The position numbers and the translations under genes were made by a program. The notes under the pieces are model-generated. The model saw only the letters and a list, made by a program, of their open reading frames with translations, was not told the DNA's origin and ran no database searches. Shown here one piece after another: positions 7,000 to 64,000 of a stretch of DNA of 64,000 nucleotides; within the stretch, counting starts at the first letter, position 1; every line of letters begins with the position of its first letter. Source of the DNA: Flavobacteriales bacterium (GTDB lineage: Bacteria; Bacteroidota; Bacteroidia; UBA10329). The stretch covers positions 43,551-107,550 of the forward strand of contig JAIOYP010000002.1 in NCBI GenBank assembly GCA_021741155.1, given 5' to 3'.

Positions 7000-7120
7000 A
7001 GATTACAACAGATACCACGTGGAAAAATGCCAGTTGTCATTTTTTAGAGATTCTCATTAATGCATATCTGTATGTGTTCCCAAACATCCAGTCCAATTAC
7101 AAATCGGACATGAAAAGGCC

Positions 7121-7204
7121 ACAGATGCACGGATTTCCACTGATTTTCCACAGATAAAAGTAAGTCCATCAGAGAAATCAGTGGAAATCCGTGCATCTGT
7201 GGCT
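7121..7204. terminator. perfect 27-bp-arm inverted repeat between ctaA (3' end) and nadA (5' end)
   Basis: The arms are ccacagatgcacggatttccactgatt ... aatcagtggaaatccgtgcatctgtgg. A related palindrome occurs at 35258-35335. Confidence 0.5.
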
Positions 7205-9876: not shown

Positions 9877-9882
9877 AACGTC

Positions 9883-17489: not shown

Positions 17490-18068
17490 TCAATCTCCGC
17501 GTTTGTAGCCGATTTTCTGCCTGTTCTGTTGGTCAAGTTCTTGCTGTTTAATCGCTTCAAACTGTTTGAGGTATTCAAATATGATCTGAAGTTGGTCATC
17601 GTGGCCTCTGACGCTACTCCTTATCTCTTCCAACTGTTTGAAGAACTCTTGATGACTGGAAATCAGCTGTCTCATCTTGGTGAAGAGACGCATAATCTGG
17701 ATGTTTACTTGGATTGCGGTCGGACTGTTCAATATGCTTGACAGCATGGCAACTCCCTGTTCCGTAAAGCAGAATGGAGCGTATCGTAACCCTTTCCTAT
17801 CTTCTTTGGACATCACAGATTGTGATCTCCAAGATTGGAATTCCTCTTTATCCATCTCGAACATGAAGTCTTCTGGAAATCTGTCCAGATTACGCCTAAC
17901 TGCTTGTTTGAGGACTCTTGTTTCTACGCCATACAAGGCTGCCAAATCCCTATCCAGCATCACTTTTCCCCCACAGACCTCACGTATTTTGCTCATCAAT
18001 ACTTCGTGCGGTATTGCAATCGTCAGATTCTTTTTGGCCATGTCTAAAAAGGTTGAGCGGTCTTTCAC
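17490..18068 (-). CDS. ORF6N-domain protein
   Basis: It contains the characteristic KVMLDRDLAALYGVETRVLKQAVRRNLDRFPEDFMFE ... RYAPFCFTEQGVAMLSSILNS ... VNIQIMR segments. Confidence 0.8.
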   Translation of the reverse strand: MKDRSTFLDMAKKNLTIAIPHEVLMSKIREVCGGKVMLDRDLAALYGVETRVLKQAVRRNLDRFPEDFMFEMDKEEFQSWRSQSVMSKEDRKGLRYAPFCFTEQGVAMLSSILNSPTAIQVNIQIMRLFTKMRQLISSHQEFFKQLEEIRSSVRGHDDQLQIIFEYLKQFEAIKQQELDQQNRQKIGYKRGD

Positions 18069-18317: not shown

Positions 18318-18422
18318 GCGGAAAACGGTAGCCGTGGTGCGGAAACCAGTTGCGATGTAACGGAAATTGATTGCCGTGTAACGAGCGATGACCACGGAGC
18401 GGCTGACAACCGCATTACCCTA
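18318..18422. repeat. tandem array, about 5 x 21 bp (gcggaaaNcNgtNgccgtgta), immediately 3' of the adhesin gene
   Basis: The units start at 18318, 18339, 18360, 18381 and 18402. The theme (cggaa ... cgtgca) resembles the 4368-4472 array. Confidence 0.7.
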
Positions 18423-21400: not shown

Positions 21401-21575
21401 TACTTACCAAAACGCCCGTTCCAGCAATTACCTCGGCAAGTTGCTGAGCAGTTTGCCCTGTTGTTACGGCCATCTGCGCCATCGACTTCTCCGAATAAAC
21501 AGAAAAGCAAAGAATGAAGACGATTAACAGAATGTTTCTCACACAGATTTTTTTCGGGGGAACAAAAATAACCAA
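18420..21575 (-). CDS. large cell-surface protein with a T9SS type-B (gliding-motility-associated) C-terminal domain, PKD repeats and an N-terminal anchor-type domain
   Basis: 1051 aa. The C-terminus YTLYIPGAFTPNEDGLNDTWIPQG ... WDGTFNGTQVQQGVYIYHMEV fits the gliding-motility CTD. The N-terminal ~90 aa are related to the N-terminus of 23901-26018. It has a signal peptide. Confidence 0.8.
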   Translation of the reverse strand: MVIFVPPKKICVRNILLIVFILCFSVYSEKSMAQMAVTTGQTAQQLAEVIAGTGVLVSNASISGDPLAIGAFTTGANATGLNVPSGVVFGTGEVTGFSQNQTTFASTILGTTGNPYLANLAGIDSYDALTLEFDFVPNADWVSFDYVFGSEEHPSFSCDPFFNDIFAITVQGVSVPLAETVITLVPGTTTPVSIGTVNNQGCGNATYFVDNTAQNSQYVVFGGFTTVLRAEMAVICGETYHLRMMISDGGDSSYDTGCFVKENSLTTGSVVVETATAAADSTAYEGCNDATVTLTLNGPAITQNFPVPIWISGSTADWGIDYDPIPQLNQADSTVTIPAGQNTVSFVISPINDNVTEGLEYIEFIVITSTCGLTDTFRIYINDLLPITTQTSNDTTICIGNANVWCEASGGGGLFTYTWDNNMGVGSSISPAPTQTTVYNVSVSDNCGSTPVTDFVTVTVDGGPTPFAGNDVSVCIGGSVLLNASSNAPNSTFSWNPPTDLSAINVANPLCTPQGPMEYIVTVTRQDGCSNEDTVLVTITPPPTSDFNLPAFGCVGTPLLVHYTGNANAAAQYQWNFDTGIITNGSGIGPLAVYWATPGIYNVDLTVAWNGCVSANSTAQIEILGAPPVDAGSDISFCSGDSGPIGSAPVNGVTYLWSPINGVADPTASETTVELINPGHTTQVLDYVLIATEQGCKSRDTMRVTVFAKPTAEFAIPAGKCFPVNSFNLLAEGYFGPNATFAWNFGPVGFPANSTNRQPQGVIFNAPGPQPVTLTITDNGCVSDPFVGTINVFHMPDAQFTADVLEGCEPLSVTFEDQSFNGNSTLYYTWNLGNGTATTNSDPGMTYEHGVYNIRLDVVTAQGCADFKVQNAMIESYYKPKALFSLSSQQLDIIDPTVIVTNLCDSAANSEFTFHPFEDHVVAMQTSYTYPDTGRYSISQVVTTQHGCMDTISGTLEVNPHYTLYIPGAFTPNEDGLNDTWIPQGESIAEFSMTIYNRWDMEIFYSGSLDLGWDGTFNGTQVQQGVYIYHMEVIDILGVPHIYRGTFTLRR

Positions 21576-21590
21576 AACCTAAGGGTCTAG

Positions 21591-23765
21591 TTATTTTAGG
21601 ATGATTACGTGGCCAGATTCTTTAATTATGAGGTCTCTAATGGCAACAGCCGATATTCGATACGAATAGACGGCTGGGACTGGTTCGTGGTTGCCTTCAT
21701 TATTTAGAGTGCCATCCCATTTCTCAAATGGATCGGTAGAATGAAACATCTGTTTGCCCCATCTGTCGAACACCCAAAGCTCATAAACTCTAAATCCATA
21801 AGCCTTTGGGCCCCAGGTGTCATTAATCCTATCACCATTGGGTGTAAAAGCGTTGGGAATGTAGAATCGGATTTCTGGCTCCACCCGAATCAGTACCGAG
21901 TCCTTCGTTTCGCAGCCGTTGGCATCGGTAAAAGTCATCACTGCATCATACCTTCCGGTATCTAAATACGTGTATTCGTATGCGCACATTGGCACGTTCC
22001 CAGAAAAAATGGTTCCATCGCCCGTGGCAAGCGAACACTCAACCGCATCCGTAGAAGTTCCCTCAAAATTGAAGGTTGGCTCAAAGATGTAATGGAAATT
22101 GGTGTCTACAGTAAGTTCTCCGTTTGGAATGGGAAATGTCTCCACGATTTGCCGTAAGGTGTATGTGGAGGTGTCAACGCATCCTTCATTTGTCCAAATG
22201 GTAAGCGAAATATCGAAGGAGCCAGTGGTAGTGTATTCGTGCAGAATATGACTTCCCACATCGGTGCTTCCATCTCCCAAATTCCAAGAAATTTCATAGT
22301 CGGTGGCGGAGGTGGAATTATCTACCAGCAACACACCCAAGGGTGCACAGCCAATCAGTGTATCCAGCGGAAAAAAGGCTTGCGGACGAGGTAAGGTTTC
22401 GATGGTTGAAGTGGCTTCGCCCGAACAACTGTTCTCCGTCACTGTCACGGTAACCGAATAAACTCCGAGGGAATCAAAGACGATTCCAATTGGATTTCTG
22501 TCGGTTGAAGTTGCTGGAGTTGCATTAGAGAATTCCCACAGAAAGGTTGATCCACCGCCAAACTGCCCGTTGGCTTCAAACCTAAAATTGTTGGCATCTG
22601 CACACGGATTGCCGCTGCTGGTAATGTCCACTACAATCTCTTCATACACCTCTATAATGGCAACCGCTGTATCGGCACAGGCATAACCCGGATTTCCAAT
22701 AAGCGTCACTGAATAAGCACCCGTATCAGGAAAAAGATAGGTCGGATTGTGAATATTGGACGTATCGGTGGTGATGTTAGCCACACCAAAATCCCAATGG
22801 TAATACTGCGTATTGATGCTGTTGTTTCCGAAGGTCACTCCCAACCCACTGCATGGGTCGTGAAAGGAGGTCTGGATTGGGATTACCGCCTCCACATTTG
22901 AGGCGCAATTCACCACGTTGAATTGAAAATCGCGCTTGTTGATGCTCAAAAGCTGACCGTTCCGGTATTCTTCCACGCAAACACCAACCACATATTGCCC
23001 AGCTTGTGTTGGCACTCCGGTCAGTTGTCCCGTTACGGGGTCAATGGCCAAAATCGGACTGGCATCAAGCGGATCCATAGCACTGTAACCTCCGCCCCAA
23101 TTGATATTAGTGTACGGAGGACCAAGAGGCGGAATTGGTGCCGGATTGGCCTGCGAACCGCCATGATAAGGCGTGCAAAGTGAATAGACCAATTGGTCGC
23201 CATCTGGGTCGGTGGCAGAATGATTGAAAATCAATTCTTCGCCAATACACAGCGCCAAGGGCGGAAAGCTGTTAAAGTGCGGACTGCTGTTGCAGGAGTT
23301 CAAAGCAGCTTCTGGAATGGCTACATAATAAGTGGAGCCCTGCGAAGCAGGATTAGTTAGATTGACAATACTCTGGTTTCGGCAGCAACGCTGATAAGCC
23401 ACATGATATCCTCCAGCGATGAACGGAAGATTGACCGTGACGGTGTAAACCGCTTCTTCAACACACACATTTGGTGGTGCTTGCAAGCAAGGATTGTTGA
23501 TGATGACAGGAAGCAATTGTGCGCCTCCATGAAACGCATCTAACGTAGTGAACAAACCACCGTTGGAAGTGTAAATGGCGATGCTTGCTGGACTATCAAA
23601 CGGAGCGCCCGAACTATTGCAATCTCGATAGACTTTGAGGGTTATCTGGTAATTATCGTTGCCCAGACATTCATAATAGATTTCTCCTCCCACCAGATGA
23701 TCGCCCTTGGAGATGAGGGGTATCGAAAGGATGGTAAAAAGGAAAATGAGAAACCTCCTGAACAA
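21591..23765 (-). CDS. cell-surface protein with a T9SS type-B C-terminal domain
   Basis: 724 aa. The C-terminus is FYIPNAFTPNGDRINDTWGP ... FDRWGKQMFHS ... WDGT. The N-terminal domain is Cys-rich, and it has a signal peptide. Confidence 0.8.
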   Translation of the reverse strand: MFRRFLIFLFTILSIPLISKGDHLVGGEIYYECLGNDNYQITLKVYRDCNSSGAPFDSPASIAIYTSNGGLFTTLDAFHGGAQLLPVIINNPCLQAPPNVCVEEAVYTVTVNLPFIAGGYHVAYQRCCRNQSIVNLTNPASQGSTYYVAIPEAALNSCNSSPHFNSFPPLALCIGEELIFNHSATDPDGDQLVYSLCTPYHGGSQANPAPIPPLGPPYTNINWGGGYSAMDPLDASPILAIDPVTGQLTGVPTQAGQYVVGVCVEEYRNGQLLSINKRDFQFNVVNCASNVEAVIPIQTSFHDPCSGLGVTFGNNSINTQYYHWDFGVANITTDTSNIHNPTYLFPDTGAYSVTLIGNPGYACADTAVAIIEVYEEIVVDITSSGNPCADANNFRFEANGQFGGGSTFLWEFSNATPATSTDRNPIGIVFDSLGVYSVTVTVTENSCSGEATSTIETLPRPQAFFPLDTLIGCAPLGVLLVDNSTSATDYEISWNLGDGSTDVGSHILHEYTTTGSFDISLTIWTNEGCVDTSTYTLRQIVETFPIPNGELTVDTNFHYIFEPTFNFEGTSTDAVECSLATGDGTIFSGNVPMCAYEYTYLDTGRYDAVMTFTDANGCETKDSVLIRVEPEIRFYIPNAFTPNGDRINDTWGPKAYGFRVYELWVFDRWGKQMFHSTDPFEKWDGTLNNEGNHEPVPAVYSYRISAVAIRDLIIKESGHVIILK

Positions 23766-23805
23766 TTGGTTATTAGGTTAGCAGTTATTGGATATTGACG
23801 GATTC

Positions 23806-23828
23806 TTAGTGAGACCTTTCGTTCCTCA
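23806..23828. repeat. fragment of the MITE internal stem (gagacctttcgttcctcaggg)
   Basis: It matches the 21-bp stem of the MITE family and lies in the intergenic spacer between two adhesin genes. Confidence 0.5.
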
Positions 23829-23900
23829 GGGTTACAACCTGGGAATCCCCGCGTTTTCCCATGCCTCTTGTCCCTTGTCTCTTGTCTCTCGCCCCTTCAA

Positions 23901-26018
23901 TTACTCCCCAGAAAGCACGTGCAGTAAGCCCGTTTCCCTCACCTCAATGCCAATTGGCGGTTCTACCCACACGTGATAGACATACGCACCGCTCGGCACC
24001 AACTTTCCGTTGTACGTTCCGTCCCAAGCTGTATCGTCCTTGAACCGACCGAACTTCATCTTGTTGCCCCACCTGTCAAATATCTCCAAATCGTAATAAA
24101 GGTAACCCTCTCCTTGAATTCCGAAAACATCATTTACACCATCGCCATTTGGCGTAAAGGCATTTGGAATGTACACGTGAAGTGGCGGATAGACAGTAAC
24201 GGTGTCTTCAACGAACGACTGGCAGCCGTTGCTGTTTGTAACCGTGAGGATAACGGGATACGTGCCTTCTTCGGCATATTCGTGCAACGGAGATTCGCGG
24301 ATGCTGGTCTCGCCATCTCCAAAATCCCAATTGAAATTGGTAGCGCCAACGGTGGTATTGGTGAACTGAATAGTGCTATGTTTTACGAGCTGATGCGTGA
24401 ACGAAGCATCCAATTCTTCTACTGTAACTGTGGCCGTGGTAGATTCAGAAATACCGCAACCGTCCGTAACCTGAAGTGCAACAGACACGGTACTTGTTGG
24501 ACTTAATGAATACGTTGGGTCAGTTCCGTTCCCATCCCAGAGGTAGGTTATGCTACCTATTCCGCCTGTTACGTTTGAGGTCAAAAGCGCATCATCGCCA
24601 TTGCAAACCACTACATCAGCCGCAGAAACCTGCATTTGCTGGTAATTGACCGAAATGGTACTGGTGGCAGTAGAGATAAAGCCGCAAGCATCGGTTACAA
24701 TCACCGTGTAATTGGTGGTGGTGTATGGATTAACTGTGATAGACTCATCCGTATCAGCTGCACCATTCCATTGATACTCATAAACAGGATAGCCCCCCGA
24801 AACAACCACATCAATCGTGCTCGGAGTGGGGCAAGCCAAGGCCAAGCTTGGTGTAATCTGCAACACCATTGGCTCTACATCTTGAATGGTGATGGTTACA
24901 GAAGAAGCAGGCCCCGAACTGCAAGGATTTAGCTGGTCGAGGGCAATTGTCAATGTTTCTATTCCTTCAACAGCACCATCTTGAACAATATTGAACGTAA
25001 TGCTGGTAGTGCCCTGTCCAGCAGGAAATGTGATGGTATTGGGAATATTGGTCACATCAGCACCAACCGTAACCGTACCGCTGAAATTCAACCCAACGGT
25101 CAAAGGTGCATCAAACGGTTCGGAACGCTCAAACGTGAGACTCATGGAACTGCAGCCTTCTACCAAATCAAGCGATCCAGTTGTAGAGGTATAATTCGTC
25201 TCCGCACTCAAACTTACCGTAGGGCTCGAAAAACTTCCCGCTTCTAGAAAAACTGCACTATCGTAGGTTCCATCACCTCCATCGGCAATGGCCAAACGGA
25301 TATGATACGATTGGCACGAAGTAAGAACGACTTGCGCTGTTAGCACCCGAGTAAATCCATTGTAGTTAACGGATGCACCACCTTGCTCGCCAGCATCATC
25401 GCCATTATCGATATAATACTGAGAATTGGTGTTGGCATTCACATTGAGCATAGTTATGGGCGTGGTAGTGCCCGGAAGTTGCGCAATATTTTGCTCGCCA
25501 ACAATCCCTGGTCCACTCACAAAAAAGGCGAATACATCGTTGATATTGTTGGTCGGATTGACCCAAAACATGTACTCATTGGAGGCAAAAACATAGCGGA
25601 ACTGAACCGTATCGGAAGAAGGAATGAAATCAAACTCCAAGACGGAAGCATCGTGTGTTCCGAGCGATGAGGCAGAAATGGCAGAAAGCGCGGCATCTCC
25701 CGGACGCATAAAATCGGTTCCTTCTTCGGAGATAGAGCCCGCAGTAGTTGAATTTGGCCCCACAGCATCAATGGCGCGACCAGTAGAAAGAATTACTCCC
25801 GATGCCAAACCAATGTTAGAATTAGCCCCGTCAAAGAACCCTCGCGAAGCAGGATTACCCGTAAACTGGAAGTTACTTACCTGCACTCCTTGTCCAATCA
25901 ATACATCTTCCACCAATTGCTGTGGCGAATAGGTGGCATCCACCACCAACTGCGCATGGACAGACATACCAAAAAGGCACGCCACAAGCATCAGATAGAA
26001 TGAACGGAACAACTTCAT
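23901..26018 (-). CDS. cell-surface protein with a T9SS type-B C-terminal domain and a PKD domain
   Basis: 705 aa. The C-terminus is VYIPNAFTPNGDGVNDVFGIQG ... FDRWGNKM ... WDGTYNGKLVPSGAYVYHV. A PKD signature (NWDFGDGETS) is present. The N-terminus is paralogous to 18420-21575. Confidence 0.8.
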   Translation of the reverse strand: MKLFRSFYLMLVACLFGMSVHAQLVVDATYSPQQLVEDVLIGQGVQVSNFQFTGNPASRGFFDGANSNIGLASGVILSTGRAIDAVGPNSTTAGSISEEGTDFMRPGDAALSAISASSLGTHDASVLEFDFIPSSDTVQFRYVFASNEYMFWVNPTNNINDVFAFFVSGPGIVGEQNIAQLPGTTTPITMLNVNANTNSQYYIDNGDDAGEQGGASVNYNGFTRVLTAQVVLTSCQSYHIRLAIADGGDGTYDSAVFLEAGSFSSPTVSLSAETNYTSTTGSLDLVEGCSSMSLTFERSEPFDAPLTVGLNFSGTVTVGADVTNIPNTITFPAGQGTTSITFNIVQDGAVEGIETLTIALDQLNPCSSGPASSVTITIQDVEPMVLQITPSLALACPTPSTIDVVVSGGYPVYEYQWNGAADTDESITVNPYTTTNYTVIVTDACGFISTATSTISVNYQQMQVSAADVVVCNGDDALLTSNVTGGIGSITYLWDGNGTDPTYSLSPTSTVSVALQVTDGCGISESTTATVTVEELDASFTHQLVKHSTIQFTNTTVGATNFNWDFGDGETSIRESPLHEYAEEGTYPVILTVTNSNGCQSFVEDTVTVYPPLHVYIPNAFTPNGDGVNDVFGIQGEGYLYYDLEIFDRWGNKMKFGRFKDDTAWDGTYNGKLVPSGAYVYHVWVEPPIGIEVRETGLLHVLSGE

Positions 26019-42219: not shown

Positions 42220-43008
42220 CTAATCATGTGGATCCTGAAAGAGAAGCGTATTCTCGTCAAAGACAAGTGTCATCCAAGGACTCTTAACGGGATAGACCGA
42301 CTTATCGATGTAAACCGTTGTATCCCCTTTTAATACTTTCTGACCAAAATTGTCTTTCTTTTGGTTGCGGTATTCCCATCTATACAGCGTAATAATACGG
42401 TCGGCAACTTGCTCCGTAATTGCATAGTGGTTGTAACGCCCACTTTTTTTTGACCTTTTCCGGTAGTCGGTAGAAGCTTCAAGAATCACTGGTATCTCCA
42501 TCAGTTCTGCTAATATCTTAAGGTGTTTAAGAATAGGTAAATACCGTCTTTTCTTCTTAAAAAGCTGCGAGGATTTTGGTCCGACAAAAAGCATGGCGTT
42601 GATTACAATGCAGTCGACATTCTTTTCTCTTTTCATGATAGAAACAAGCTCACACAGATCAATAAGCGTTGGCCAATACTTGTAAACGACCGGATGGCTG
42701 ACATTCTCAGTTCGCAAAATTCCTGACCGACCGTTCTTTTCCATTTCAAACGAACATTCTTCAATTTGTCGGGATGCCAACGCAACGCGTTCCTTGAATT
42801 TGAATAACGATTCTTCTAGTGAAATGTAGCCTATACGCTGTTTCTGAAGTTTGCTTAACATCATACTCAGCACGAAAGATGTCTTACCCATGGCAGGTTC
42901 GCCAGCAAGAATGACCAGCTCGCCTGGCCGAAAACCACCAATGGCATTGTCCAACATTTTGATACCCGAGAAGAAACATTGATCTGACATTTGTCGTGTT
43001 TTCGGCAA
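42220..43008 (-). CDS. stand-alone DnaB-helicase C-terminal (RecA-like ATPase) domain protein
   Basis: 262 aa. It has Walker A GEPAMGKTSF and is colinear with the DnaB C-terminal domain only (LDNAIGGFRPGELVILAG ... IPVILEASTDYRKRS ... TVYIDKS). The DnaB N-terminal and linker domains are missing. Confidence 0.7.
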   Translation of the reverse strand: MPKTRQMSDQCFFSGIKMLDNAIGGFRPGELVILAGEPAMGKTSFVLSMMLSKLQKQRIGYISLEESLFKFKERVALASRQIEECSFEMEKNGRSGILRTENVSHPVVYKYWPTLIDLCELVSIMKREKNVDCIVINAMLFVGPKSSQLFKKKRRYLPILKHLKILAELMEIPVILEASTDYRKRSKKSGRYNHYAITEQVADRIITLYRWEYRNQKKDNFGQKVLKGDTTVYIDKSVYPVKSPWMTLVFDENTLLFQDPHD

Positions 43009-43040
43009 ATGTTCAGGATGACAGCGACAACTGCTGTCGG

Positions 43041-43943
43041 CTATGCGTAGCGTTCCAATATCCCCTTCAACATCGCTTTCATTCGGTCAATGGCTGAGGC
43101 AGGACTGAGAATACGAACCCTCGATTCCATCATCAATATCTGTTGAAAAAACTCGTAGTTGGGAACTACATGAAGCTCAAATATGACACCGTTTTCGCTC
43201 TCGCCCACTTCGCGCTGCGAATGATGCAATTTCACCGACCGCAAGTAACCAGCGTGGGTCGTTTCTGACCAAAGTTGGATTGTTTCGGGAGCATCCTCAT
43301 TTCCGTAAAGCCCAATTACGTGACCATACATGGCGTCATGATCGTTCTGTTCTGTGAACTGGAAAATTTCATCGATGACTTCCATTTTAAGGATGCGATC
43401 CAACCCAAAACTCTTTGTCTTGCCGCTTTCATCTTCGCGTGCCAACAAGTACCAACGATGAAGGTATTGCTTCAGAAAAAGTGGACAGACCTTTCTTTCC
43501 GTTGGTTCTCCTCCAAATTTGCAATGCGAAACCTTCAATTTTGTGCTGTTCTTTATCGCTTCCAGAATTACAGGAACATGCCCAAGTCCTTCAGTCATCT
43601 GCGTTTCATCCAGATAGATTGATCTGCGTTGACCGCGTTTTTTAGTGGCCTCGTTGCGGAGCATTTCGGCAAGCCCTGCGTGTTCCAAGTAGCGGCTTAT
43701 CAGCGTTTTCTCCTCTGGTTCTTCCACAATCTCGTACCATCTATTCGGATGCGAACCTTTCCGTTCTATCACATAATCGAGTTCGTTTTCGATAGTTTTG
43801 ATGTCGCGCTGAACGGTGCGTTCATCCACGCCCTCACCCAAACCGTGAAGAAAATTCACAATATCTTCGGTGGTCGGGCGGCTGTTCTTCTTGATAAAAT
43901 CTAAGATGTAACCGTGTCTGTTGTATATTCTTGCGTAAGCCAT
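43041..43943 (-). CDS. WYL-domain transcriptional regulator (HTH-WYL-WCX architecture)
   Basis: It has an N-terminal HTH (YARIYNRHGYILDFIKK ... ERTVQRDIKTIENEL), a central WYL-like region (HCKFGGEPTERKVCPLFLKQYLHRWYLLA) and a C-terminal extension. It lies immediately upstream of the DnaB-C ATPase. Confidence 0.65.
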   Translation of the reverse strand: MAYARIYNRHGYILDFIKKNSRPTTEDIVNFLHGLGEGVDERTVQRDIKTIENELDYVIERKGSHPNRWYEIVEEPEEKTLISRYLEHAGLAEMLRNEATKKRGQRRSIYLDETQMTEGLGHVPVILEAIKNSTKLKVSHCKFGGEPTERKVCPLFLKQYLHRWYLLAREDESGKTKSFGLDRILKMEVIDEIFQFTEQNDHDAMYGHVIGLYGNEDAPETIQLWSETTHAGYLRSVKLHHSQREVGESENGVIFELHVVPNYEFFQQILMMESRVRILSPASAIDRMKAMLKGILERYA

Positions 43944-44022
43944 GCGGCTAAGGTAAGCGGGGATGGCGACATTGGTTGTCGGGATGTGTTTTAACATTTG
44001 CTCAACTCATTTATTCGAACAC

Positions 44023-44811
44023 ATGGAAAACTCCAATGAAACTCCGCGTTATAAAACCGTAACCCATTTTTTGTGCGACCTGATCCGCAATCCAGATTTT
44101 GCTTCGTTCCCACGTAGTTTCGCCTATCCAAGTGGGCTTCCCAAAAAAAGTATTCTTTTTCTGGGCCTTCAACCGCCCATGTCGGAGGACAAAGAAAAAC
44201 GCTATCGCTTCGAAATGTATAAGCAGGGAACGAAAGGAGATAAAAATCAATACATCAAACAGTTTGCGGAAATAGCGGAATACTGCAATACTCCGTGGGC
44301 GCATCTGAATCTGCTCTTCTTCAGGAAAACGAAAAACAATGGCATTGATGAAATTTTAAAGAAGGAAGCAGGTGTTCAATTTATATGGGAACAATTGAAA
44401 GTTACCGATCAGCTGATTCGGCAAATAGAACCTGAAATTATTGTGAGCCTGAATAAGACTGATGCAAGCACATTTATGGGATTCAACAAAACCGATAATG
44501 GTAATGCTTGGCTCGATTACGAATTCGTGTTCGATAATGAAATTGACACCTATCGTTGGGAAGGAACACCCGTATTCTTCACCAAATTGTTCAAAGGCCA
44601 ACGAACATTGGACAACGGTTCATTCGAAAAGCTGAAATGGCAGATCAGGAACGCACTGATCCTTGACCTTGAAAAGAAGAAAAAGGAAGTGGTTGAACTC
44701 AAAAACAAGGTGGTCAAATCCTCAAAATATGAACTGGCTGCCGAAATACGGAATCAGGAACGGGAGTTGGAGGATAGGTTGGAGAAACTCAGGTTTAGCA
44801 ATACGCAATAG
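44023..44811 (+). CDS. hypothetical protein with a C-terminal UVR (UvrB/UvrC-type) motif
   Basis: The C-terminus KYELAAEIRNQERELEDRLEKLR resembles the UVR domain. The N-terminal 200 aa are unassigned. It is divergently transcribed from the WYL regulator. Confidence 0.45.
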   Translation: MENSNETPRYKTVTHFLCDLIRNPDFASFPRSFAYPSGLPKKSILFLGLQPPMSEDKEKRYRFEMYKQGTKGDKNQYIKQFAEIAEYCNTPWAHLNLLFFRKTKNNGIDEILKKEAGVQFIWEQLKVTDQLIRQIEPEIIVSLNKTDASTFMGFNKTDNGNAWLDYEFVFDNEIDTYRWEGTPVFFTKLFKGQRTLDNGSFEKLKWQIRNALILDLEKKKKEVVELKNKVVKSSKYELAAEIRNQERELEDRLEKLRFSNTQ

Positions 44812-44813
44812 TT

Positions 44814-46037
44814 TCAACTACCTGTTGCGTACAGTTTTTTTACGATTTCTTCCACCTTTTGCCCAATAGTTTCAGCCGAGGTTTCATAGTCACTTATAGT
44901 TTCGTATAGTACAAACGATTCCTCTCTTTTGCCAGACAGTTTATTTTTATCTCCTACCGACAGAATATTTTCGCTTTTCTCTGATAGGCCATTTGTATTC
45001 CAGAATTCTATAGTCCATCCAATAGGCGAAAGTCTTATTTTCAAATGCAAATCGTTGGTTGCATCTAATGGCTTCAATGGAATGTAAAGGACTGAGTTCA
45101 ACTTACTCAGCTGATCCTCTTTATCCCAAATTTCGGTAGCACTCATCCTTTGAAATTCAGAAAGGTTCAATTTACGCTGTAATTCTCTTAGCTTTCCCCC
45201 AACATCTTTTAGAAACACATTGAAAGCCTGTTGTATCCGTATGAGATTTTCCTGACCATATTCTTTCGATTTCCCTAAGCCTGTAACCAAATCAATTAAT
45301 TCCTTCTTTTGAATATCGTCCATACCTTGTCCAGTTAGTTTTTTGATTAGATAAATGTATTGCCCTATTACGTCTCTTACGGTTGGCACATCAATAACCA
45401 CACTTTGGCATTTAATTAACCATTCGAGTATATCATTCGAGTATGAAATGAGGAAATAATGCTTGTCCTTCTCTCTCGATATTTCTGGCTTTTCTGAGTG
45501 AGTACTGAATCTTGATGCATCGCTCCCATATAACGTCAAATAAAGAATAAGACCACCTTTTTCGCCATTCACATAATAATTGTAATATCGGATGAGTTGC
45601 TTTTTCTGATCTTGAGCGTAAATCTTATTCTCGATACAGATTGAATTCCTTGGATGATTTATTACAATATCTGCCCTTCCGCCTTTTGTCCAATCATCGC
45701 TGATTTTACCCAAATCCACTTCTTTCCTAACCAAAGCTGACTCCATATCAACTTCAGGAATATTCATTTTTTCATCTTTTGATGCTGTCTTTTTTTCTTC
45801 CAGCATCTTTATGAAAAGATTCAGAAATAGTGAGCCCTGTCCATGCGAACCTTTTGGATTGAGCAGTTCAACTAAAAAAGCAGAGTGCGTACTCGTCTCT
45901 GTACTTTCGGCTCCAAGAATGGAAAAAACATTAAATTTTCTTCCAGTTATCCGAGCTATCTCCTCGTGCTTCTTGTTCAGTGCCGAAACCTGTGACAGCA
46001 AAAACTTTGCACGGTTTGTCAGTTCATTCATCAACAA
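44814..46037 (-). CDS. PD-(D/E)xK nuclease superfamily protein
   Basis: 407 aa. The core motif is GGRADIVINH ... ICIENKIYAQDQ (D ... E-x-K). Confidence 0.55.
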   Translation of the reverse strand: MLMNELTNRAKFLLSQVSALNKKHEEIARITGRKFNVFSILGAESTETSTHSAFLVELLNPKGSHGQGSLFLNLFIKMLEEKKTASKDEKMNIPEVDMESALVRKEVDLGKISDDWTKGGRADIVINHPRNSICIENKIYAQDQKKQLIRYYNYYVNGEKGGLILYLTLYGSDASRFSTHSEKPEISREKDKHYFLISYSNDILEWLIKCQSVVIDVPTVRDVIGQYIYLIKKLTGQGMDDIQKKELIDLVTGLGKSKEYGQENLIRIQQAFNVFLKDVGGKLRELQRKLNLSEFQRMSATEIWDKEDQLSKLNSVLYIPLKPLDATNDLHLKIRLSPIGWTIEFWNTNGLSEKSENILSVGDKNKLSGKREESFVLYETISDYETSAETIGQKVEEIVKKLYATGS

Positions 46038-46117
46038 AAAATATTAGGATAACGTATTGATCTCAAAATATCCAGACGAGTATTTCAAACACATCAACGA
46101 ACTCAAAACATACAATT

Positions 46118-46348
46118 TCACAGTGCAGGTTGGTGCTTTTTTGTAGGACTTTTTGAACAAGAATTTACACACAGACTGGAAAGGCTTGAATACTTTCCAC
46201 CACAGAACTTACAAGTATATTGAGCCTTTTCGCTTCCCTCATACAAAGCATGTTTCTTGCCTTCTGGATTTTTGGAGCAGGAGTTTACAGTCAGACTGGA
46301 TACGCTGGAATACTTACCTCCGCACCATTTGCAATAAAAATTAGACAT
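46118..46348 (-). CDS. 76-aa protein made of two tandem C-x2-C-GGKYSS-x-SSL-x-VNSCSK repeats (possible zinc ribbon)
   Basis: The protein reads MSNFYCKWCGGKYSSVSSLTVNSCSKNP ... YTCKFCGGKYSSLSSLCVNSCSKSP. The DNA shows a ~110-bp internal tandem duplication. Confidence 0.4.
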   Translation of the reverse strand: MSNFYCKWCGGKYSSVSSLTVNSCSKNPEGKKHALYEGSEKAQYTCKFCGGKYSSLSSLCVNSCSKSPTKKHQPAL

Positions 46349-46592
46349 CTTAATTTCGGTTTTTCGTTCAGTGCTTACTCTTCTCGGTTTTCAGCTTCCC
46401 CTGTTTCTTGTAAATGTACATTTAATACTCTCAGACAAACATCCATACTGTTACCGACAAATGCTGTCGGAACATGAGAGACCCTTCAATTTCTTCGGCT
46501 ATGCTTAGAACAGACAGAGAAACAAACGAGACAATCATACCTCGCCAAATCACTCCAACAAAACCACTTTTGGCGAAGTATAATCGTTTTGC

Positions 46593-47993
46593 TTACTCAA
46601 ATAGGCAATCCATTTTCAGATCGTTTTGAACCAATTCCAGGCTGTAGGGATTCTCTTTGGTACCAAAAGTTGTTACCATGACCAAGTGTGTGCCTTTTCG
46701 GGTTCCAGAAGAATTTTTGAATTCCGAAATCTTGTTCCGAAGATTCTGAGCGTACGTTTTATCAATGGTAAATGGCGAATTGGCAAACTTCATTTCACAT
46801 AGATTAATAATGTTGTCTGCCCGATCAATTACCAGGTCTATCTGTGCATTTTCGTTGAACCAACTGCTGCTTTCGGAGCGGATTGCCTGTATTTGAAGTC
46901 CTTTCTTCAGTTGATGAACATGTTTAAGACACAGTCCCTCAAAACTGAATCCCGACCACGAAACATACGACTGACTGGTTTGCAGATTCAGCCAAGTACC
47001 AGAACCGTTGTATTTTCCGTTCTCCATGAATTTCAGGTAAAACAGTGAATATTCATCCGACAAGCGATACAGGGTTTGCTTCGCCTTATTCTGAAAATAA
47101 GGATACTCAGTAACAAATCCAGACTCGATTAATTCCATCAATTTCAGCGAAAGATCGCCACCACTGGGAAGTCCACTTTTCTCAATGATCCCGTCTCTTG
47201 TCAACCCTTTCCGTGTATTTGCCAACGCCCTGATTATCGCTTTATGCTTATCAGAATCATCAAATAGTGAGGCGAACAGTAGATTGAACTCATCACTCAA
47301 CACTCCGTCCTTCTCGAAACACATTCGGTCCAAATTCTGCGCTACACTCTTACCCCGTTGCACTTTCTCCAAATAGTGAGGAACGCCACCAACGGCCATG
47401 TATAGCTGCAAAATATCATAGCGTGTAAGATCAATATTCCTGCTTTTCAGAAACAGTTCTGTTTCTTGTAGGTTGAATGGCAACAGACGTATTTTTTGCG
47501 AAATCCGATTGTGAAGACCGCCTTTGTTCCTAATAATCTTCTGAACCATGTACGATGCAGCAGAACCACATATTACAACAATCAGATCTGCACGTTTCTC
47601 AGAATAGCTATTCCAAAAATTCGCAAATGCCATGAGAAATTTAGACCTCTTTGTGGCCATCCAAGGAAACTCATCAATGAAGATTACCTTTTTTCCTTCA
47701 TTGGAAAGACTATCAATATACTGTTCCAATAAGGTGAATGCATCCAGCCAATTAGTTGGTTTTTTATTATTGGTCGATGTTCGTTTGTCGAGTTCCTTGG
47801 TAAAATTGGCCAACTGATCAACCATTCCGCCTTGAAAAAGACCCGTTACCTCAAAGCAAATCCTATTCTCAAAAAACTGCCGAACGAGAAAGGTCTTTCC
47901 TACCCTTCTCCTTCCATAAATGGCAATCAATTCGGCTTTATCGCTTGACAAAGTGGCCTCAAGCAGACCAATTTCGTGTGTTCTTCCAACCAT
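46593..47993 (-). CDS. AAA-type ATP-binding protein (Arch_ATPase + DUF234-like architecture)
   Basis: Walker A GRRRVGKTF and Walker B VIFIDEF are present. The C-terminal ~100 aa are typical of the DUF234 family, which is common in Bacteroidota. Confidence 0.7.
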   Translation of the reverse strand: MVGRTHEIGLLEATLSSDKAELIAIYGRRRVGKTFLVRQFFENRICFEVTGLFQGGMVDQLANFTKELDKRTSTNNKKPTNWLDAFTLLEQYIDSLSNEGKKVIFIDEFPWMATKRSKFLMAFANFWNSYSEKRADLIVVICGSAASYMVQKIIRNKGGLHNRISQKIRLLPFNLQETELFLKSRNIDLTRYDILQLYMAVGGVPHYLEKVQRGKSVAQNLDRMCFEKDGVLSDEFNLLFASLFDDSDKHKAIIRALANTRKGLTRDGIIEKSGLPSGGDLSLKLMELIESGFVTEYPYFQNKAKQTLYRLSDEYSLFYLKFMENGKYNGSGTWLNLQTSQSYVSWSGFSFEGLCLKHVHQLKKGLQIQAIRSESSSWFNENAQIDLVIDRADNIINLCEMKFANSPFTIDKTYAQNLRNKISEFKNSSGTRKGTHLVMVTTFGTKENPYSLELVQNDLKMDCLFE

Positions 47994-50869: not shown

Positions 50870-51880
50870 TCATACATCCCTTTTTCGCTGCCGATTGGCC
50901 ATGTATTCTACAATGGCATCTTCGGTAGTGAGCCAATTGCGGCCGTCCTTGTAGGCGTCTATTTTACCTTGCCGTGCCAGCAAACTCACGTATTCCTGAC
51001 CATAAGGAAGCTGACTTTCTTCTACAATATTTGAAATCGGTTTGTACTCATTCCCGTCAGGGTGCATGCTCAAGTAAATATCCAAGGAACGCTCTACAGC
51101 CTGCATCATTAAAAGCAAAAGCTTGGCATGAGAACCATTGCTGGCCCTATCCTTATTTAGCGCATCATAGTATTTCTTCCTGTCATTTTTTAAGATGATA
51201 GCTGGAGGATAACCCTTCCGCATAAGCAAAAGGTTCATTGCCAAACGCACCGTACGCCCGTTTCCATCAAAAAAGGGATGGATCCAAACAAACCGATGAT
51301 GAAAAATCGTGGCTAGAACAATGGGCGAAAGCCCCTGCTCATTCTCATTCACGAAATGGATTAACTCATCAATCATATCAGAAACCTTCTGAGCATTAGG
51401 TGGAGAAAAATTTGCACCTGTAATACGAACACCAGCATTTCGAAACCTTCCAGCATAAAACTTCTCCAATTTCAGCATTACCAATTCGTGAAGATCTAAT
51501 ACTTCCGTTGTACGCAACGGAGCATCTGAACCTACCAGCCCTTCTAAGTAGGAAATAGCATCGTGGTGGTTTGCCACTTCAAAATGCTCGCGCATCGATT
51601 TGCCCTTCACCGTCATACCATCTTGCAGTACCACGCGGGTTTCGTTAAGCGTAAGCGTATTGCCCTCAATACTGGTAGAATTATAAGTCCATTCAAGATT
51701 AAGCCCTTCGCGAAGCCGCTCCAAAGCAACTTGTGCCATGGGTCTTTTAGTATCTAACAGGAGTTTTTTCTGTTCAATACGATCAATCCCAACTTGCAGG
51801 TCTTTAATATCGGATAGGTCTATTTTCCACATAACCCCACAAATATATGAATTATCGTTTAGTTTAATTATTGCCTTCAT
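50870..51880 (-). CDS. Fic/DOC-family protein
   Basis: It carries the Fic motif HPFFDGNGRTVRLAMN. Confidence 0.8.
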   Translation of the reverse strand: MKAIIKLNDNSYICGVMWKIDLSDIKDLQVGIDRIEQKKLLLDTKRPMAQVALERLREGLNLEWTYNSTSIEGNTLTLNETRVVLQDGMTVKGKSMREHFEVANHHDAISYLEGLVGSDAPLRTTEVLDLHELVMLKLEKFYAGRFRNAGVRITGANFSPPNAQKVSDMIDELIHFVNENEQGLSPIVLATIFHHRFVWIHPFFDGNGRTVRLAMNLLLMRKGYPPAIILKNDRKKYYDALNKDRASNGSHAKLLLLMMQAVERSLDIYLSMHPDGNEYKPISNIVEESQLPYGQEYVSLLARQGKIDAYKDGRNWLTTEDAIVEYMANRQRKRDV

Positions 51881-60844: not shown

Positions 60845-61010
60845 GATGACCCGAACGCCCTTCGGAAGTTCTTCCGAACCACATTCCCGCAGCCAAATGG
60901 CCTTCGGAAGTTTTTCCGAGCCACGTTTCCTTGACCAAATGTCCCTCGGAAGTTCTTCCGAACCGCATTCCCGTGGCCAAATGTGCCTCGGAAGTGGGCT
61001 TACGGATGGT
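60845..61010. repeat. tandem array, about 3.5 x 42-43 bp (ccttcggaagttcttccgaaccacattcccgcagccaaatg)
   Basis: The units are at 60857-60899, 60900-60942 and 60943-60984, plus a partial unit. The track ORFs here (both strands) are artefacts of the repeat. Confidence 0.8.
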
Positions 61011-61040
61011 TTCCCTTTACGAGTGCAGCGGCTATAGAAC

Positions 61041-61183
61041 AATATTCACAATCCGCCCCGGAACCACAATTACCTTCTTAGGCGCGGCACCTTCCAAACG
61101 TTCTTGCACTTCTGCATTGGCAAGCACAACTTTCTCCACTTCGTCTTTGCTCATGCTGGCAGGAAGTTCGAGGCTGAGGCGCG
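61041..61183. repeat. displaced pseudo-3'-end of leuS (direct repeat of 63156-63298, about 92 % identical)
   Basis: On the minus strand it would encode ...[39 protein letters not shown], which is almost identical to the true LeuS C-terminus. Confidence 0.8.
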
Positions 61184-61265
61184 TTTTAGATAGGGAAGTA
61201 GATACTACAGTAGAGATTAAGAAAACCTAACTTAGCCGACATACAAGACAACACGCATACTTATT

Positions 61266-63128
61266 ATGAAATCTACACTGATTGATGAGACCTTGATTCG
61301 AATTAGGCAGTCGCTCTCTAGTGATGAGTTCATTGATGTTGAAAAAAGTAAAGTTGAACTCAAAGATCTATCAACAGGCAACGACTGGAAATCTTTGAAA
61401 GAAACCATCAGTGCATTTTTAAATACGGATGGAGGCATTATTGTCTGTGGAATTAGAGAGAAAAACAAGCAGTACATCCTTACAGGATTCAACAGAAACA
61501 ATGAAGGCAATCTCACCGATTTGGATTCTAAGTTTTTTAGGGATGACCGAGGAGTACTCCTTGATGTTTCAGACCACATCCACTTCAGCTACGAAACTGT
61601 GAAGGATAAGGAAGTGGCGGTTATTGCCATTTTTCCTCTCACAGATGACTTGAAGTATGTGCAATTTGATGATGTGTATTATGAGCGAAAACTAACCAGA
61701 GACTGTCAGATTCCTCAGCCTAAGTTGCAAAGGCATAGGGAGTATAAAGCGGAATTGGAATACGCAAAGGAATTAGCATTAGTAGCAGATGCATCAATTA
61801 AGGATCTTAGCTTAGATAAGATTAACAACTATGTCAATCTACTGAATCGGGAGATTAGGAATGAGACGCTGAAACCATCCATTGCGAAAGCCAAACCATT
61901 TTTAGCTAACCAACATTTTATTCGAGAAGACAATGTTACAACCTTGGGAATGCTTGTTTGCGGAGCAGACCCTTACCATTTCCTTGGTGCCAGAGCAGAG
62001 GTGAACGCCTATTTTGATACCGATTCTGGTATCGGTAAGGACAAGAAGCTTTTCCGTAGTGATGTAATCACTCTGATGGAAGAATCTTTCAGATTTGTTT
62101 GGGGACACATACGTGTAGCCAGAGCCGTGACCGATGGCGGCAAGAGCGAGCCTGAGTATCCCGAACAGCTTGTAAGGGAAGTCATAAACAATGCCTTGGC
62201 CCATCGCGACTACACCATTGACGGATTCGTCAGCCTAACTGTCGAGCCTGCCCAATACCTCGAAGTTCGTAATCCTGGGTCTTTCAAGGAGAAAATGAAG
62301 CTGATTCACACGGAAACGGATGTTCCCGTCCGCAGGCTCATCCATGGCATTCCGGAGAGCAAAAACCCGAAGTTGGCTGGTGTACTCAAAGTATTCGACA
62401 AGCTGGAAGGACAGAGCAGGGGGATGTCTTTTCTGATTAACGCGACCCTCGAAAACTTGACCGACCTGCCATACTACATAATCAAGGATAATCTGGTTAC
62501 GCTCCGAATTCCGCAGGGCAAATTGCTAGACGAGGGCGTGGAAGTCTGGCTCGCTGGCTACAGCGGTTACATCACCTCTAAACTTGGTTTCTCACCCACA
62601 ATAGAGCAACAGCAGGTACTCGCCTATTTCTACAAGTCGGAACTATTGAACCGTCAGCGGTACTTCACCATCCTACTCAATGAGAGCAACAATCACTTTC
62701 AGGCGATTGAGGCGTTGAGAAACGCTGGCCTTCTTGAAGAGCACGTGGCGTCCACCGAGGAGGCCCCCGTGTTCATCCTTGACAGGACAATGATGCGGAC
62801 GGAGTTCCACAAAGAGCTGCGAGAACTTATAGGCGATCTGGTACTAAACAGTCTGGATGAAGCGGCATTGCACATCTTGAACCTCACGTATCAATACACT
62901 GTTTACAATAATGCTGGATTGAAGGCCTCTGAGTTAACCCCAGAGATTTACCGCAGACTTCATGGCAAACACATTAACCCAAGGAAGTATGAGTCATTGG
63001 GTCGACAGGTTAGAAAGCACTGTGCAAAACTTGAGGAGGAGGAAATCCTTATACGTGAGGAAAAGAAAGCATACCGCTTGAACCCTAATTATATACAACC
63101 TTCGTCCCTGTTTTCAGGAAAAAATTGA
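61266..63128 (+). CDS. AlbA_2 (Schlafen-like putative DNA-binding) + HATPase_c_4 domain protein (annotated as 'transcriptional regulator/RecG-like' in Bacteroidota)
   Basis: The N-terminal AlbA_2 pattern is DVEKSKVELKDLSTGNDWKSLKETISAFLNTDGGIIVCGI. The central motif is VREVINNALAHRDYTIDGFVSLTVEP. A C-terminal HTH-like region follows. Confidence 0.6.
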   Translation: MKSTLIDETLIRIRQSLSSDEFIDVEKSKVELKDLSTGNDWKSLKETISAFLNTDGGIIVCGIREKNKQYILTGFNRNNEGNLTDLDSKFFRDDRGVLLDVSDHIHFSYETVKDKEVAVIAIFPLTDDLKYVQFDDVYYERKLTRDCQIPQPKLQRHREYKAELEYAKELALVADASIKDLSLDKINNYVNLLNREIRNETLKPSIAKAKPFLANQHFIREDNVTTLGMLVCGADPYHFLGARAEVNAYFDTDSGIGKDKKLFRSDVITLMEESFRFVWGHIRVARAVTDGGKSEPEYPEQLVREVINNALAHRDYTIDGFVSLTVEPAQYLEVRNPGSFKEKMKLIHTETDVPVRRLIHGIPESKNPKLAGVLKVFDKLEGQSRGMSFLINATLENLTDLPYYIIKDNLVTLRIPQGKLLDEGVEVWLAGYSGYITSKLGFSPTIEQQQVLAYFYKSELLNRQRYFTILLNESNNHFQAIEALRNAGLLEEHVASTEEAPVFILDRTMMRTEFHKELRELIGDLVLNSLDEAALHILNLTYQYTVYNNAGLKASELTPEIYRRLHGKHINPRKYESLGRQVRKHCAKLEEEEILIREEKKAYRLNPNYIQPSSLFSGKN

Positions 63129-63147
63129 CCGCTAATTCGCAGTCTCG

Positions 63148-64000
63148 TTAAACCACAATATTCACAATCCGCCCCGGCACCACAATTACCTTCTTAGGTG
63201 CGGCACCTTCCAAACGTTCTTGCACTTCAGCATTGGCAAGCACAACTTTCTCCACTTCGTCTTTTCCCATGCTGGCAGGAAGTTCGATGCTGAGGCGTGT
63301 CTTTCCATTGAAACTGATAGGGTAATTCACACTATCCTCCACCAAAAAGCTTTCGTTAAACGCTGGGTAGGTGGCAAAGGTGATGCTTTCTGAGTGACCG
63401 AGTTGCGACCATAGCTCTTCTGCAATGTGTGGCGCATACGTAGAAATGACCACCGTAAATGGCTCCAAAATTGCGCGCTTGTTGCACTTCAAATCGTTGA
63501 GTTCGTTTACGCAAATCATAAACTGGCTTACGCTTGTATTGAATGATAAACGCTCAATGTCTTCCTGCACCTTTTTGATGGTGGCGTGCAATGCTTTCAA
63601 CTCCTTTTTAGTCGGCTCTTCTTCCGAAACAACGAACGTATCTCCATCATGGAATAGGTTCCAGAACTTTTTCAAGAACCGCGAAACGCCTTCAATACCG
63701 TTGGTGTTCCACGGCTTGGCATCTTCCAACGGCCCAAGGAACATTTCGTACAAACGAAGCGTGTCTGCTCCGTAGCGTTCAATAATGTCATCAGGATTTA
63801 CAACGTTCCATTTGGATTTGGACATTTTTTCAACTTCTGGTTGCGTATAAAAAGCTTTATCCAAAGTTGTATCCTGTTCGAAGTAATGAAACTTGCCATT
63901 TTGCCAATATCCATTTCTACAAATGAAAATGGCGTTCTCGTCATCTCTACTCCAAGTCAGATACTCTTCAACGTTAAGCTCGCATTTTTGGTCAAACGAT
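63148..64000 (-). CDS. leuS: leucyl-tRNA synthetase, C-terminal part (gene continues past the window end)
   Basis: It has the class-I KMSKS motif (EKMSKSKWN). It is open to the window edge and absent from the complete-ORF list because its 5' end lies outside the window. The track lists only 63148-63864. Confidence 0.8.
   Translation of the reverse strand, partial: SFDQKCELNVEEYLTWSRDDENAIFICRNGYWQNGKFHYFEQDTTLDKAFYTQPEVEKMSKSKWNVVNPDDIIERYGADTLRLYEMFLGPLEDAKPWNTNGIEGVSRFLKKFWNLFHDGDTFVVSEEEPTKKELKALHATIKKVQEDIERLSFNTSVSQFMICVNELNDLKCNKRAILEPFTVVISTYAPHIAEELWSQLGHSESITFATYPAFNESFLVEDSVNYPISFNGKTRLSIELPASMGKDEVEKVVLANAEVQERLEGAAPKKVIVVPGRIVNIVV

Follow-up and report, generated by a model that had tools for sequence, protein, structure and literature searches.

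A displaced leuS 3' end beside a prokaryotic Schlafen gene in a Flavobacteriales bacterium: a candidate footprint of homology-anchored recombination

Phage 21 and the element e14 integrate into the 3' end of icd in Escherichia coli and leave a pseudo-icd tail behind. Cis-mobilisable elements, which are integrase-less islands flanked by attachment (att) sites, lie beside integrative and conjugative elements (ICEs) at the 3' end of fda in Streptococcus thermophilus. In type VI secretion system (T6SS), Rhs and contact-dependent growth inhibition (CDI) loci, the displacement of gene 3' ends and the resulting arrays of orphans have been ascribed, in PMC5361080 and in work cited there, to homology-facilitated illegitimate recombination. 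Here we describe a duplicated 3' end of leuS, the gene for leucyl-tRNA synthetase (LeuRS), that flanks a single prokaryotic Schlafen (pSlfn) gene near the right end of a 64,000-nucleotide (nt) stretch of contig JAIOYP010000002.1 from a Flavobacteriales bacterium; this whole stretch is called the window below, and coordinates refer to it unless a locus label is given. An earlier note on this DNA had read the two copies as the attL and attR of an integrase. We tentatively favour a different origin, in which the left copy is not an att site but a leuS 3' end displaced by homology-anchored recombination with an illegitimate far joint, because the anatomy of the locus, the derivation of repeats around related genes from different neighbours, the lack of defined ends and the absence of a recombinase point in that direction.

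As in the Rhs, CDI and T6SS loci, a conserved part of a gene would anchor the incoming DNA, the old 3' end is orphaned beside ancestral downstream DNA, arrays arise by repetition and no recombinase takes part. In those loci, however, the displaced end is a variable toxin and the protein changes, whereas here it is a near-identical LeuRS tail and the exchange is silent for leuS; moreover, the anchor is a housekeeping aminoacyl-tRNA synthetase gene and the event delivers a defence gene. With icd and e14 the locus shares a duplicated essential-gene 3' end of ~150-170 nt, differences that are mostly synonymous and a gene that remains functional, but those elements are still able to excise and bring many genes with them, including one for an integrase, whereas the present insert holds one gene, lacks a recombinase and is fixed in its clade. 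Cis-mobilisable elements likewise place cargo between direct repeats of a gene 3' end, have no recombination genes of their own and accrete in tandem at one site; they depend on the integrase of a cognate ICE, with which they share an att core, whereas the present locus yielded neither a partner of this kind nor such a core, and the repeats around related genes come from different genes.

Anatomy and relatives of the duplicated leuS end

A repeat finder and direct alignment place the direct repeats at 61039-61187 and 63155-63303, a pair of 149 nt with 8 mismatches (94.6% identity) and a spacing of 2116 nt, slightly longer and more similar than the ~143 bp and ~92% of the earlier note. With a gap for an 11-nt deletion in the left copy, the alignment extends to 61196 (GATAGGG), which corresponds to ~170 nt of the right copy. 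The identities that the note had given to the two copies are borne out. The right copy belongs to leuS proper, a minus-strand gene with Anticodon_1 and tRNA-synt_1 domains, and encodes its C-terminal end, which closes with ...IVNIVV* at a stop at 63148-63150; the left copy is a look-alike tail in an open frame that ends ...IVNIVL* at a stop of its own. Repeat homology ceases 7 nt short of the stop codon. No third leuS-like copy occurs in the 64-kb window, and the G+C content of the insert (0.446) equals that of the window. The order is intact leuS, 19 nt, the convergent Schlafen gene, ~69 nt, the orphan leuS tail and unrelated downstream DNA, so that DNA outside the Schlafen open reading frame (ORF) amounts to ~69 nt before it and 19-26 nt after it. 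The features of the locus are as follows.

61032-61196, minus strand: orphan leuS 3' end, read as displaced; stop at 61032-61034, ungapped core 61039-61187, homology to 61196 past the 11-nt deletion.
61197-61265, plus strand: upstream region of the Schlafen gene, ~69 nt, from the orphan junction on; conserved with loci L082, L089 and L087.
61266-63128, plus strand: pSlfn gene, 620 amino acids (aa), identified by Pfam, an AlphaFold model and Foldseek.
63127-63144, minus strand: terminator-like hairpin directly after the leuS stop, overlapping the last codons of the convergent Schlafen gene; from a consensus scan only.
63148-64000, minus strand: 3' part of leuS, running off the window, with the resident repeat at 63155-63303 (to ~63322 when gapped); 52-70% identical to LeuS of many Bacteroidota.
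60859-60995, no strand assigned: 42-bp tandem array of 3.3 copies, each unit with an 8-bp-stem hairpin TTCGGAAG..CTTCCGAA.

Relatives were recovered by exact-protein and pattern searches, and the related sequences are metagenome contigs. Four of them (L082, L089, L090 and L091), with DNA 82-87% identical to the window, all carry an orphan leuS tail, the Schlafen gene and leuS, and their repeats measure 171-179 nt at 81-92% identity. Orthologues of the orphan lie at 10052-10222 in L082 and at 9758-9946 in L089 and are also present in L090 and L091; in L082 the repeat runs 8-12 nt beyond the stop codon. By alignment, the junction between the orphan and the Schlafen upstream region falls at the same place in the window and in all four relatives. 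Since loci at this level of DNA identity share the inner junction, the duplication is a single event of some age that has become fixed in the clade; a recent integration does not account for it. Left of the orphan, the OmpA-family, PAS histidine kinase and proline dehydrogenase genes are syntenic chromosome in the relatives; an exact look-up of the neighbouring OmpA-family protein gave no match.

L089 and L090/L091 share a block of 100% identity that runs from the orphan across the Schlafen gene and stops midway through the resident repeat; beyond it, identity in leuS is 58-90%. This places a recombination breakpoint inside the repeat and directly supports a role of the leuS tail as recombination anchor, with the caveat that the loci are metagenome contigs. 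Over a longer range (8045-12580 in L089, 8005-12580 in L091), these loci form a mosaic of 100%-identical blocks and 66-80% patches, a pattern due either to strains that occur together and recombine often or to chimeras in the metagenome assemblies; the left flank of L091 is unrelated to that of L089 and has a 1550-aa gene in place of the kinase and OmpA genes. LeuS itself differs widely in length: 1371 aa in L082 (12175-16290), 1153 aa in L042 (7229-10690), 1181 aa in L089 (11879-15424) and 927 aa in L083 (9774-12557). The long forms carry an inserted DUF559/Vsr-like endonuclease domain, and the leuS of the window is incomplete at the window end.

Loci with a less similar Schlafen protein are arranged differently. 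L087, L088, L092 and L093 (protein 76% identical) have a single leuS end. In L087 and L092, leuS is followed directly by the acetyltransferase block that sits left of the orphan in L082 and L089, and the L087-type Schlafen gene lies ~4 kb from leuS, between an ABC-ATPase gene and an OmpA-family gene. Upstream of that gene, L087 retains a decayed leuS-like stretch at the same junction, with a score reached by none of 500 shuffles, and homology of the window to this gene copy begins at 61186. Because the decayed orphan sits at the same junction, the unit of orphan plus gene is older than the L087 lineage and was later moved there. L083-L086 (protein 81% identical) show the order OmpA, Schlafen gene, decayed leuS tail, a 218-aa gene without a Pfam match, and leuS. 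The decayed tail of L083 (8482-8545) lies 7 nt past the Schlafen stop, its 62-aa frame ending ...KGIVNVAV*. At this locus the leuS end bears a second such footprint, with a different cargo. No upstream orphan was detectable in L083, and no downstream orphan in L087.

The possibility that the duplication is a general feature of leuS was rejected, as none of 80 distant leuS loci had the Schlafen gene within 10 kb or, in a protein search, a second LeuS tail. The sole match in a DNA self-search of distant leuS loci was a Vicingaceae remnant found in L016 (12490-12536) and L042 (15146-15208), a decayed leuS 3' stretch with stop codons that lies 1.6 and 4.4 kb, respectively, downstream of leuS, between paralogous type IX secretion system (T9SS) cargo genes. 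These remnants are probably products of tandem duplication.

The Schlafen gene and the recurrence of flanking repeats

The sole gene between the repeats encodes the 620-aa protein. Its SLFN_AlbA_2 domain (PF04326) is clear (E = 8e-11, 42.9 bits against a cut-off of 25.3); the HATPase_c_4 domain that the earlier note had assigned to the same single gene is weak, at 16.7 bits under the Pfam cut-off of 26, although it is on record for many family members. PADLOC matches are confined to the N-termini of Schlafen-bearing Argonautes. The Bacteroidota family of the protein is large and well conserved, with 616 matches, the best 120 of which are 53-91% identical and mostly 610-625 aa long, and residues E26 and E31 are invariant in 35 family sequences. 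The AlphaFold (AF2) model has a predicted local distance difference test score (pLDDT) of 78. In Foldseek, the entire model aligns with 3LMM, the structure of the uncharacterised DIP2311 (E = 3.5e-16), with a poor superposition (TM-score 0.29, root-mean-square deviation 23 Å). The N-terminal domain matches human SLFN5/11/13/14 and the SAMD9 tRNase; the middle part weakly matches histidine-kinase ATP-binding domains, and matches to DtxR-like domains are also weak.

The predicted layout, with an N-terminal Schlafen/AlbA_2 nuclease, a central GHKL-like (HATPase_c_4) region and a C-terminal helical or winged-helix part, would fit pSlfn-HisKinase-HTH (HTH, helix-turn-helix), one of the two commonest architecture classes of prokaryotic Schlafen proteins, which were recently shown to be phage-activated tRNases (PMC13056530). 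With that class the gene shares a Schlafen/AlbA_2 domain with conserved N-terminal acidic residues, single-gene organisation and frequent placement in restriction-modification loci, and it may also share a GHKL/histidine-kinase-like domain and an HTH region, whereas the tested example of that study, RorSlfn5 (43 kDa), has an architecture other than that of the 620-aa Bacteroidota subfamily. The cargo seems to be a typical representative of an established defence family and, by analogy, may act in defence here. Its promoter presumably lies in 61197-61265; a sigma-70-type scan, which is uninformative for Bacteroidota promoters, found no match in this upstream region. Schlafen ORF calls in L082 (10001-12157) and in L089 and L091 (9713-11863) reach 709-718 aa, ~96 aa longer by way of the orphan antisense, which is open there, and are probably annotation artefacts. 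The N-terminal extension of P0001 and P0002 (709 and 718 aa) was rejected as read-through of the gene call across the orphan antisense, the frame in the window being closed at 61228-61230.

The footprint recurs around this family. Lineages were defined as genes clustered at 80% DNA identity, and direct repeats were sought within 400 nt of both gene ends. Flanking direct repeats were found in 7 of 46 family lineages versus 6 of 210 similar-size control ORFs in the same loci (Fisher p = 0.003), and the 6 positive controls are mostly T9SS paralogues or marginal matches. The repeats derive from the following sequences.

L120: 101-nt repeat; last 22 codons of glyQS plus ~35 nt.
L171: 49-nt repeat; last 49 nt of hsdM.
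L105, L106 and L110: 42-55-nt repeats; first codons of a methylase gene (MAKPQKLELTW...).
L141, L143 and L162: 40-, 173- and 55-nt repeats; non-coding DNA (terminator-promoter-like in L162).

In L120, the copies at 9877-9977 and 11846-11939 enclose a frameshifted Schlafen gene, with 18 nt before its start, a stop codon that overlaps the repeat and a 5-nt microhomology (ATTGA) at the joint. In L171, a type I restriction-modification locus, the hsdM end is duplicated downstream of the Schlafen gene (4792-4840 and 7091-7138), and the displaced hsdM copy retains its ATGA stop/start overlap with the next gene (NOV_C). L122 resembles a donor: its L105-type gene adjoins the same methylase, but the upstream repeat is missing. 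L105 (205-3986) contains 616- and 462-aa AlbA_2/HATPase_c_4 genes with a repeat that is the methylase gene start, and L143 (3083-8015) contains an array of 628-, 391- and 420-aa AlbA_2/HATPase_c_4 genes; in both, three copies of one 70-190-nt repeat separate different genes, as in sequential displacement. These arrays resemble integron cassettes in being compact single-ORF units with different genes between similar repeats. Integrons differ in that their repeats are attC hairpins, whereas the repeats here are the neighbour gene's own sequence; the target is duplicated, and IntI was not found.

Each insert has one side like a natural gene junction and another like an arbitrary joint. Repeat lengths range from 40 to 190 nt, the distance from the ORF to the junction is 16-160 nt on the upstream side and 0-218 nt on the downstream side, and no shared end motif was found in the upstream and downstream flanks of 45 aligned loci; 39 of the 46 lineages are repeat-free. 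Many family members lie on contigs of ~2.0-2.5 kb, and the idea that these are assemblies broken at repeats was rejected, since the size distribution is smooth and most flanked loci have no repeats. A link between Schlafen and synthetase genes is suggestive, with 2 of 46 lineages adjoining a synthetase gene, but not significant alone; other neighbours are pnp, radA and hsdM. Members of the family occur in restriction-modification loci in L099, L100 and L171. In L172 and L173, the Schlafen gene overlaps by 4 nt the end of a convergent 458-aa gene, which is probably radA judging from its Zn_ribbon_LapB, AAA_25, ChlI and Lon_C domains. Sibling contigs of P0093 from other samples carry 80- and 73-aa genes between the Schlafen gene and the radA-like gene, a presence/absence polymorphism at a gene end other than that of leuS.

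Weighing the origins of the footprint

Under homology-anchored recombination, the incoming DNA in an ancestor of the clade would most likely already have carried a Schlafen gene convergent on a leuS end a few bases away, and the recipient genome would have lacked the gene at that spot. Conserved leuS sequence would have provided the homologous anchor, and the far end would have joined illegitimately ~170-190 nt inside the recipient's leuS. The process may have been homology-facilitated illegitimate recombination; a circularised fragment that entered by a single crossover would be equivalent and give the same product. Neither would need a dedicated recombinase. The outcome is an intact leuS, then the Schlafen gene, then the orphaned old leuS tail still abutting the old downstream DNA. 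Thereafter, gene conversion and homologous recombination would have passed sequence between the two copies, 2.1 kb apart, and between them and further leuS alleles, which would keep the orphan coding-like, and the direct repeats would permit RecA-dependent loss of the defence gene with leuS staying intact. It is the joining mechanism and the direction of transfer that we infer.

Several points weigh against this origin. An intact donor state, with the Schlafen gene convergent on leuS and no orphan, was not found, L083 being an approximation to it. Laboratory homology-facilitated illegitimate recombination usually deletes recipient DNA and does not duplicate it. The inserts always consist of one gene with very short flanks, tidier than random joints would predict, so that a dedicated mechanism retains some plausibility. 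A local tandem duplication that later shed one gene copy would tie the window to L083 rather neatly. In addition, the orphan is not decaying as a pseudogene, so that the extra assumption of repeated conversion is needed, and some of the mosaic patterns could be assembly chimeras in metagenome contigs.

Such a local tandem duplication, unlikely but deserving serious consideration, would begin from the order OmpA > Schlafen > < leuS and double the unit formed by the Schlafen gene and the last ~190 nt of leuS, giving Schlafen-a, orphan, Schlafen-b and leuS; the window lineage would then have lost copy a, and in L083 copy b would have been replaced by the 218-aa gene. The arrangements of the window and L083 would thus both stem from one event. 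Tandem duplications are the commonest spontaneous rearrangement, the extension of the L082 repeat 8-12 nt past the stop is in keeping with one, and the Vicingaceae remnant between T9SS paralogues looks like a plain example. Nevertheless, no trace of a second Schlafen copy is seen left of the orphan in the five genomes, and each lineage requires a second, fairly precise loss. L105 and L143, with unrelated genes between the same repeats, go unexplained, and L171 and L120, in which one gene lies between copies of a neighbour's end, fit poorly. Furthermore, the L083 protein is nearer to that of the window (81%) than the L087 protein is (76%), though it is L087 that shares the junction.

Site-specific integration, the model of the earlier note, would have brought in an element with a look-alike leuS 3' end through a tyrosine or serine recombinase; an att-flanked, integrase-less cassette would remain, decayed or mobilised in trans in the manner of a cis-mobilisable element. 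The repeats do have the expected look, being essential-gene 3' ends of ~150-190 nt with 81-95% identity and mainly synonymous differences, and this gene end holds a second cargo, the 218-aa gene of L083, accompanied by a separate orphan. We nonetheless consider this origin quite unlikely. No recombinase, transposase or phage gene was found among 44 window ORFs (non-overlapping, >= 120 aa) scanned against Pfam, as the note itself had observed for an integrase; no recombinase was present in the precomputed gene tables of L082, L083 and L087 (10-kb flanks), and none was visible in L089-L091. A degenerate pattern for the conserved LeuRS tail had 0 matches in 2.9 million viral contigs, and no member of the Schlafen family was found on viral contigs or PLSDB plasmids. 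With less than 80 nt and less than 30 nt beside the ORF in five genomes, nothing is left of any larger element, and the structure has become fixed in lineages that are 13-18% divergent in DNA. One site-specific system is also insufficient because relatives of the gene are flanked by the ends of different neighbours at variable lengths: the glyQS, hsdM, methylase and non-coding repeats would each require an integrase of their own. A circular form was suspected in Logan contig L001, whose 2141 bp have ends that overlap by 25 nt, and was rejected, as the contig ends exactly on the first k-mers that distinguish the repeat copies, a break in the de Bruijn graph.

What survives of the earlier interpretation is an insertion scar at the leuS 3' end, in that the left copy is a displaced tail and distant relatives are single-ended; the scar is old, fixed and devoid of machinery. 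Neither an integrase-made attL/attR pair nor present mobility finds support, given the absence of a recombinase, the lack of viral and plasmid matches and the varied neighbours that supply the family's repeats, and the suggestion that the insert is the distal end of something larger is contradicted by the syntenic chromosome on its left. The note had also proposed a comparison of related genomes for occupied and empty sites, and had named a duplication conserved in all of them, without empty sites, as the refuting outcome. All four close relatives are occupied and the same duplication is fixed in these four loci, which comes close to that outcome, with single leuS ends only in more distant lineages.

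A dedicated single-gene mobility, in which Schlafen/GHKL/HTH cassettes would move with a 40-190-bp target duplication by means of their own nuclease, ATPase and HTH parts or of a factor in trans, appears very improbable. The enrichment of flanking repeats (7/46 versus 6/210) could be taken in its favour, as could the compactness of each repeat-flanked insert, a single gene with very little around it (in L120 the start is preceded by 18 nt and the stop overlaps the repeat), and the arrays of different AlbA_2/HATPase_c_4 genes split by the same repeat in L105 and L143. However, the control ORFs are mostly core genes, and the enrichment may reflect that accessory genes are the ones inserted. There are no conserved terminal sequences or fixed distances, 39 of 46 lineages lack repeats, the fold has no recombinase or transposase domain, and the non-Schlafen 218-aa gene of L083 has the same footprint.

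Preservation of the orphan and wider context

In all five genomes, the frame and stop of the orphan are intact. When orphans from different lineages are compared, the ratio of non-synonymous to synonymous substitution rates (dN/dS) is 0.03-0.09, a level equal to that of functional copies, and the states private to orphans comprise 7 synonymous and 2 non-synonymous changes (binomial p = 0.001). In L089, the orphan differs from the resident copy at a dS of 0.84 with the peptide conserved. The orphan ATG and the Schlafen start stand head to head, 111 nt apart. All of these observations could be cited for a functional orphan, kept for a 40-58-aa peptide equivalent to the tRNA-binding C-terminal tail of LeuRS or for an antisense or regulatory RNA beside a tRNA-cleaving nuclease. 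This proposal concerns maintenance and not origin, so it is compatible with any origin model, and we judge it improbable. Gene conversion together with the import of functional leuS alleles could produce the low dN/dS and gives the same statistics; the mosaics show both processes, the within-genome sharing of variants between copies being gene conversion. Six functional alleles were sampled, and "private" states may exist in other leuS genes; moreover, the orphans of glyQS and hsdM are too short to fold. Conversion is favoured as the keeper of the orphan because the orphan has decayed in L087, where it lies far from leuS, and in L083, after a further insertion. A joint scheme, in which Bacteroidota Schlafen/GHKL/HTH genes would be self-contained cassettes that enter conserved gene ends (two of them in aminoacyl-tRNA synthetase genes, leuS and glyQS) with a 40-190-bp duplication and the LeuRS mini-ORF would be kept as a partner of the nuclease (a tRNA-binding decoy, sensor or antisense regulator), seems hardly probable.

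The 42-bp tandem array occupies the ancestral downstream region of leuS, just outside the orphan, and is probably a bystander. It had been placed at 60845-61010 in the earlier note; it is present, with an extent of 60859-60995, a period of 42 and 3.3 copies. At the same position (9666-10034), L082 has ~9 copies of 41-bp units, whose hairpin reads CGTAA/TTACG versus TTCGGAAG/CTTCCGAA in the window, the stem being kept, and L089 has ~1 unit. The hairpin motif has no other occurrence in the window, and neither the repeats nor the array gave an Rfam match at E <= 1.

Elsewhere in the window, 42220-47993 and 50870-51880 hold a defence-like cluster comprising a DnaB_C/KaiC-like ATPase, a WYL-WCX regulator, a 282-aa ORF, a PDDEXK_4 nuclease and an ATPase_2/AAA protein, with a Fic-domain gene nearby. 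A lone ORF6N-domain gene (17490-18068), encoding a DNA-binding domain common in phage antirepressor-like proteins, has ribonucleotide reductase on one side and genes for T9SS cargo on the other. At 18420-26018, three paralogous cargo genes of the PKD/CHU_C (type IX secretion) type stand in tandem, with products of 1051, 724 and 705 aa.

If displacement by homology-anchored recombination is the right account, a lone defence gene can settle beside an essential gene without the machinery of a mobile element, with the neighbour supplying the homology and the duplicated gene end remaining as the scar. Should this prove general, orphaned gene ends would be a cheap marker for dating and mapping insertions in uncultured bacteria and for finding "integrase-less" defence cassettes. 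The flanking repeats would also give the host a built-in route to shed a costly abortive-infection gene with leuS unharmed, and the well-preserved orphan raises the question of whether displaced gene tails are always junk.

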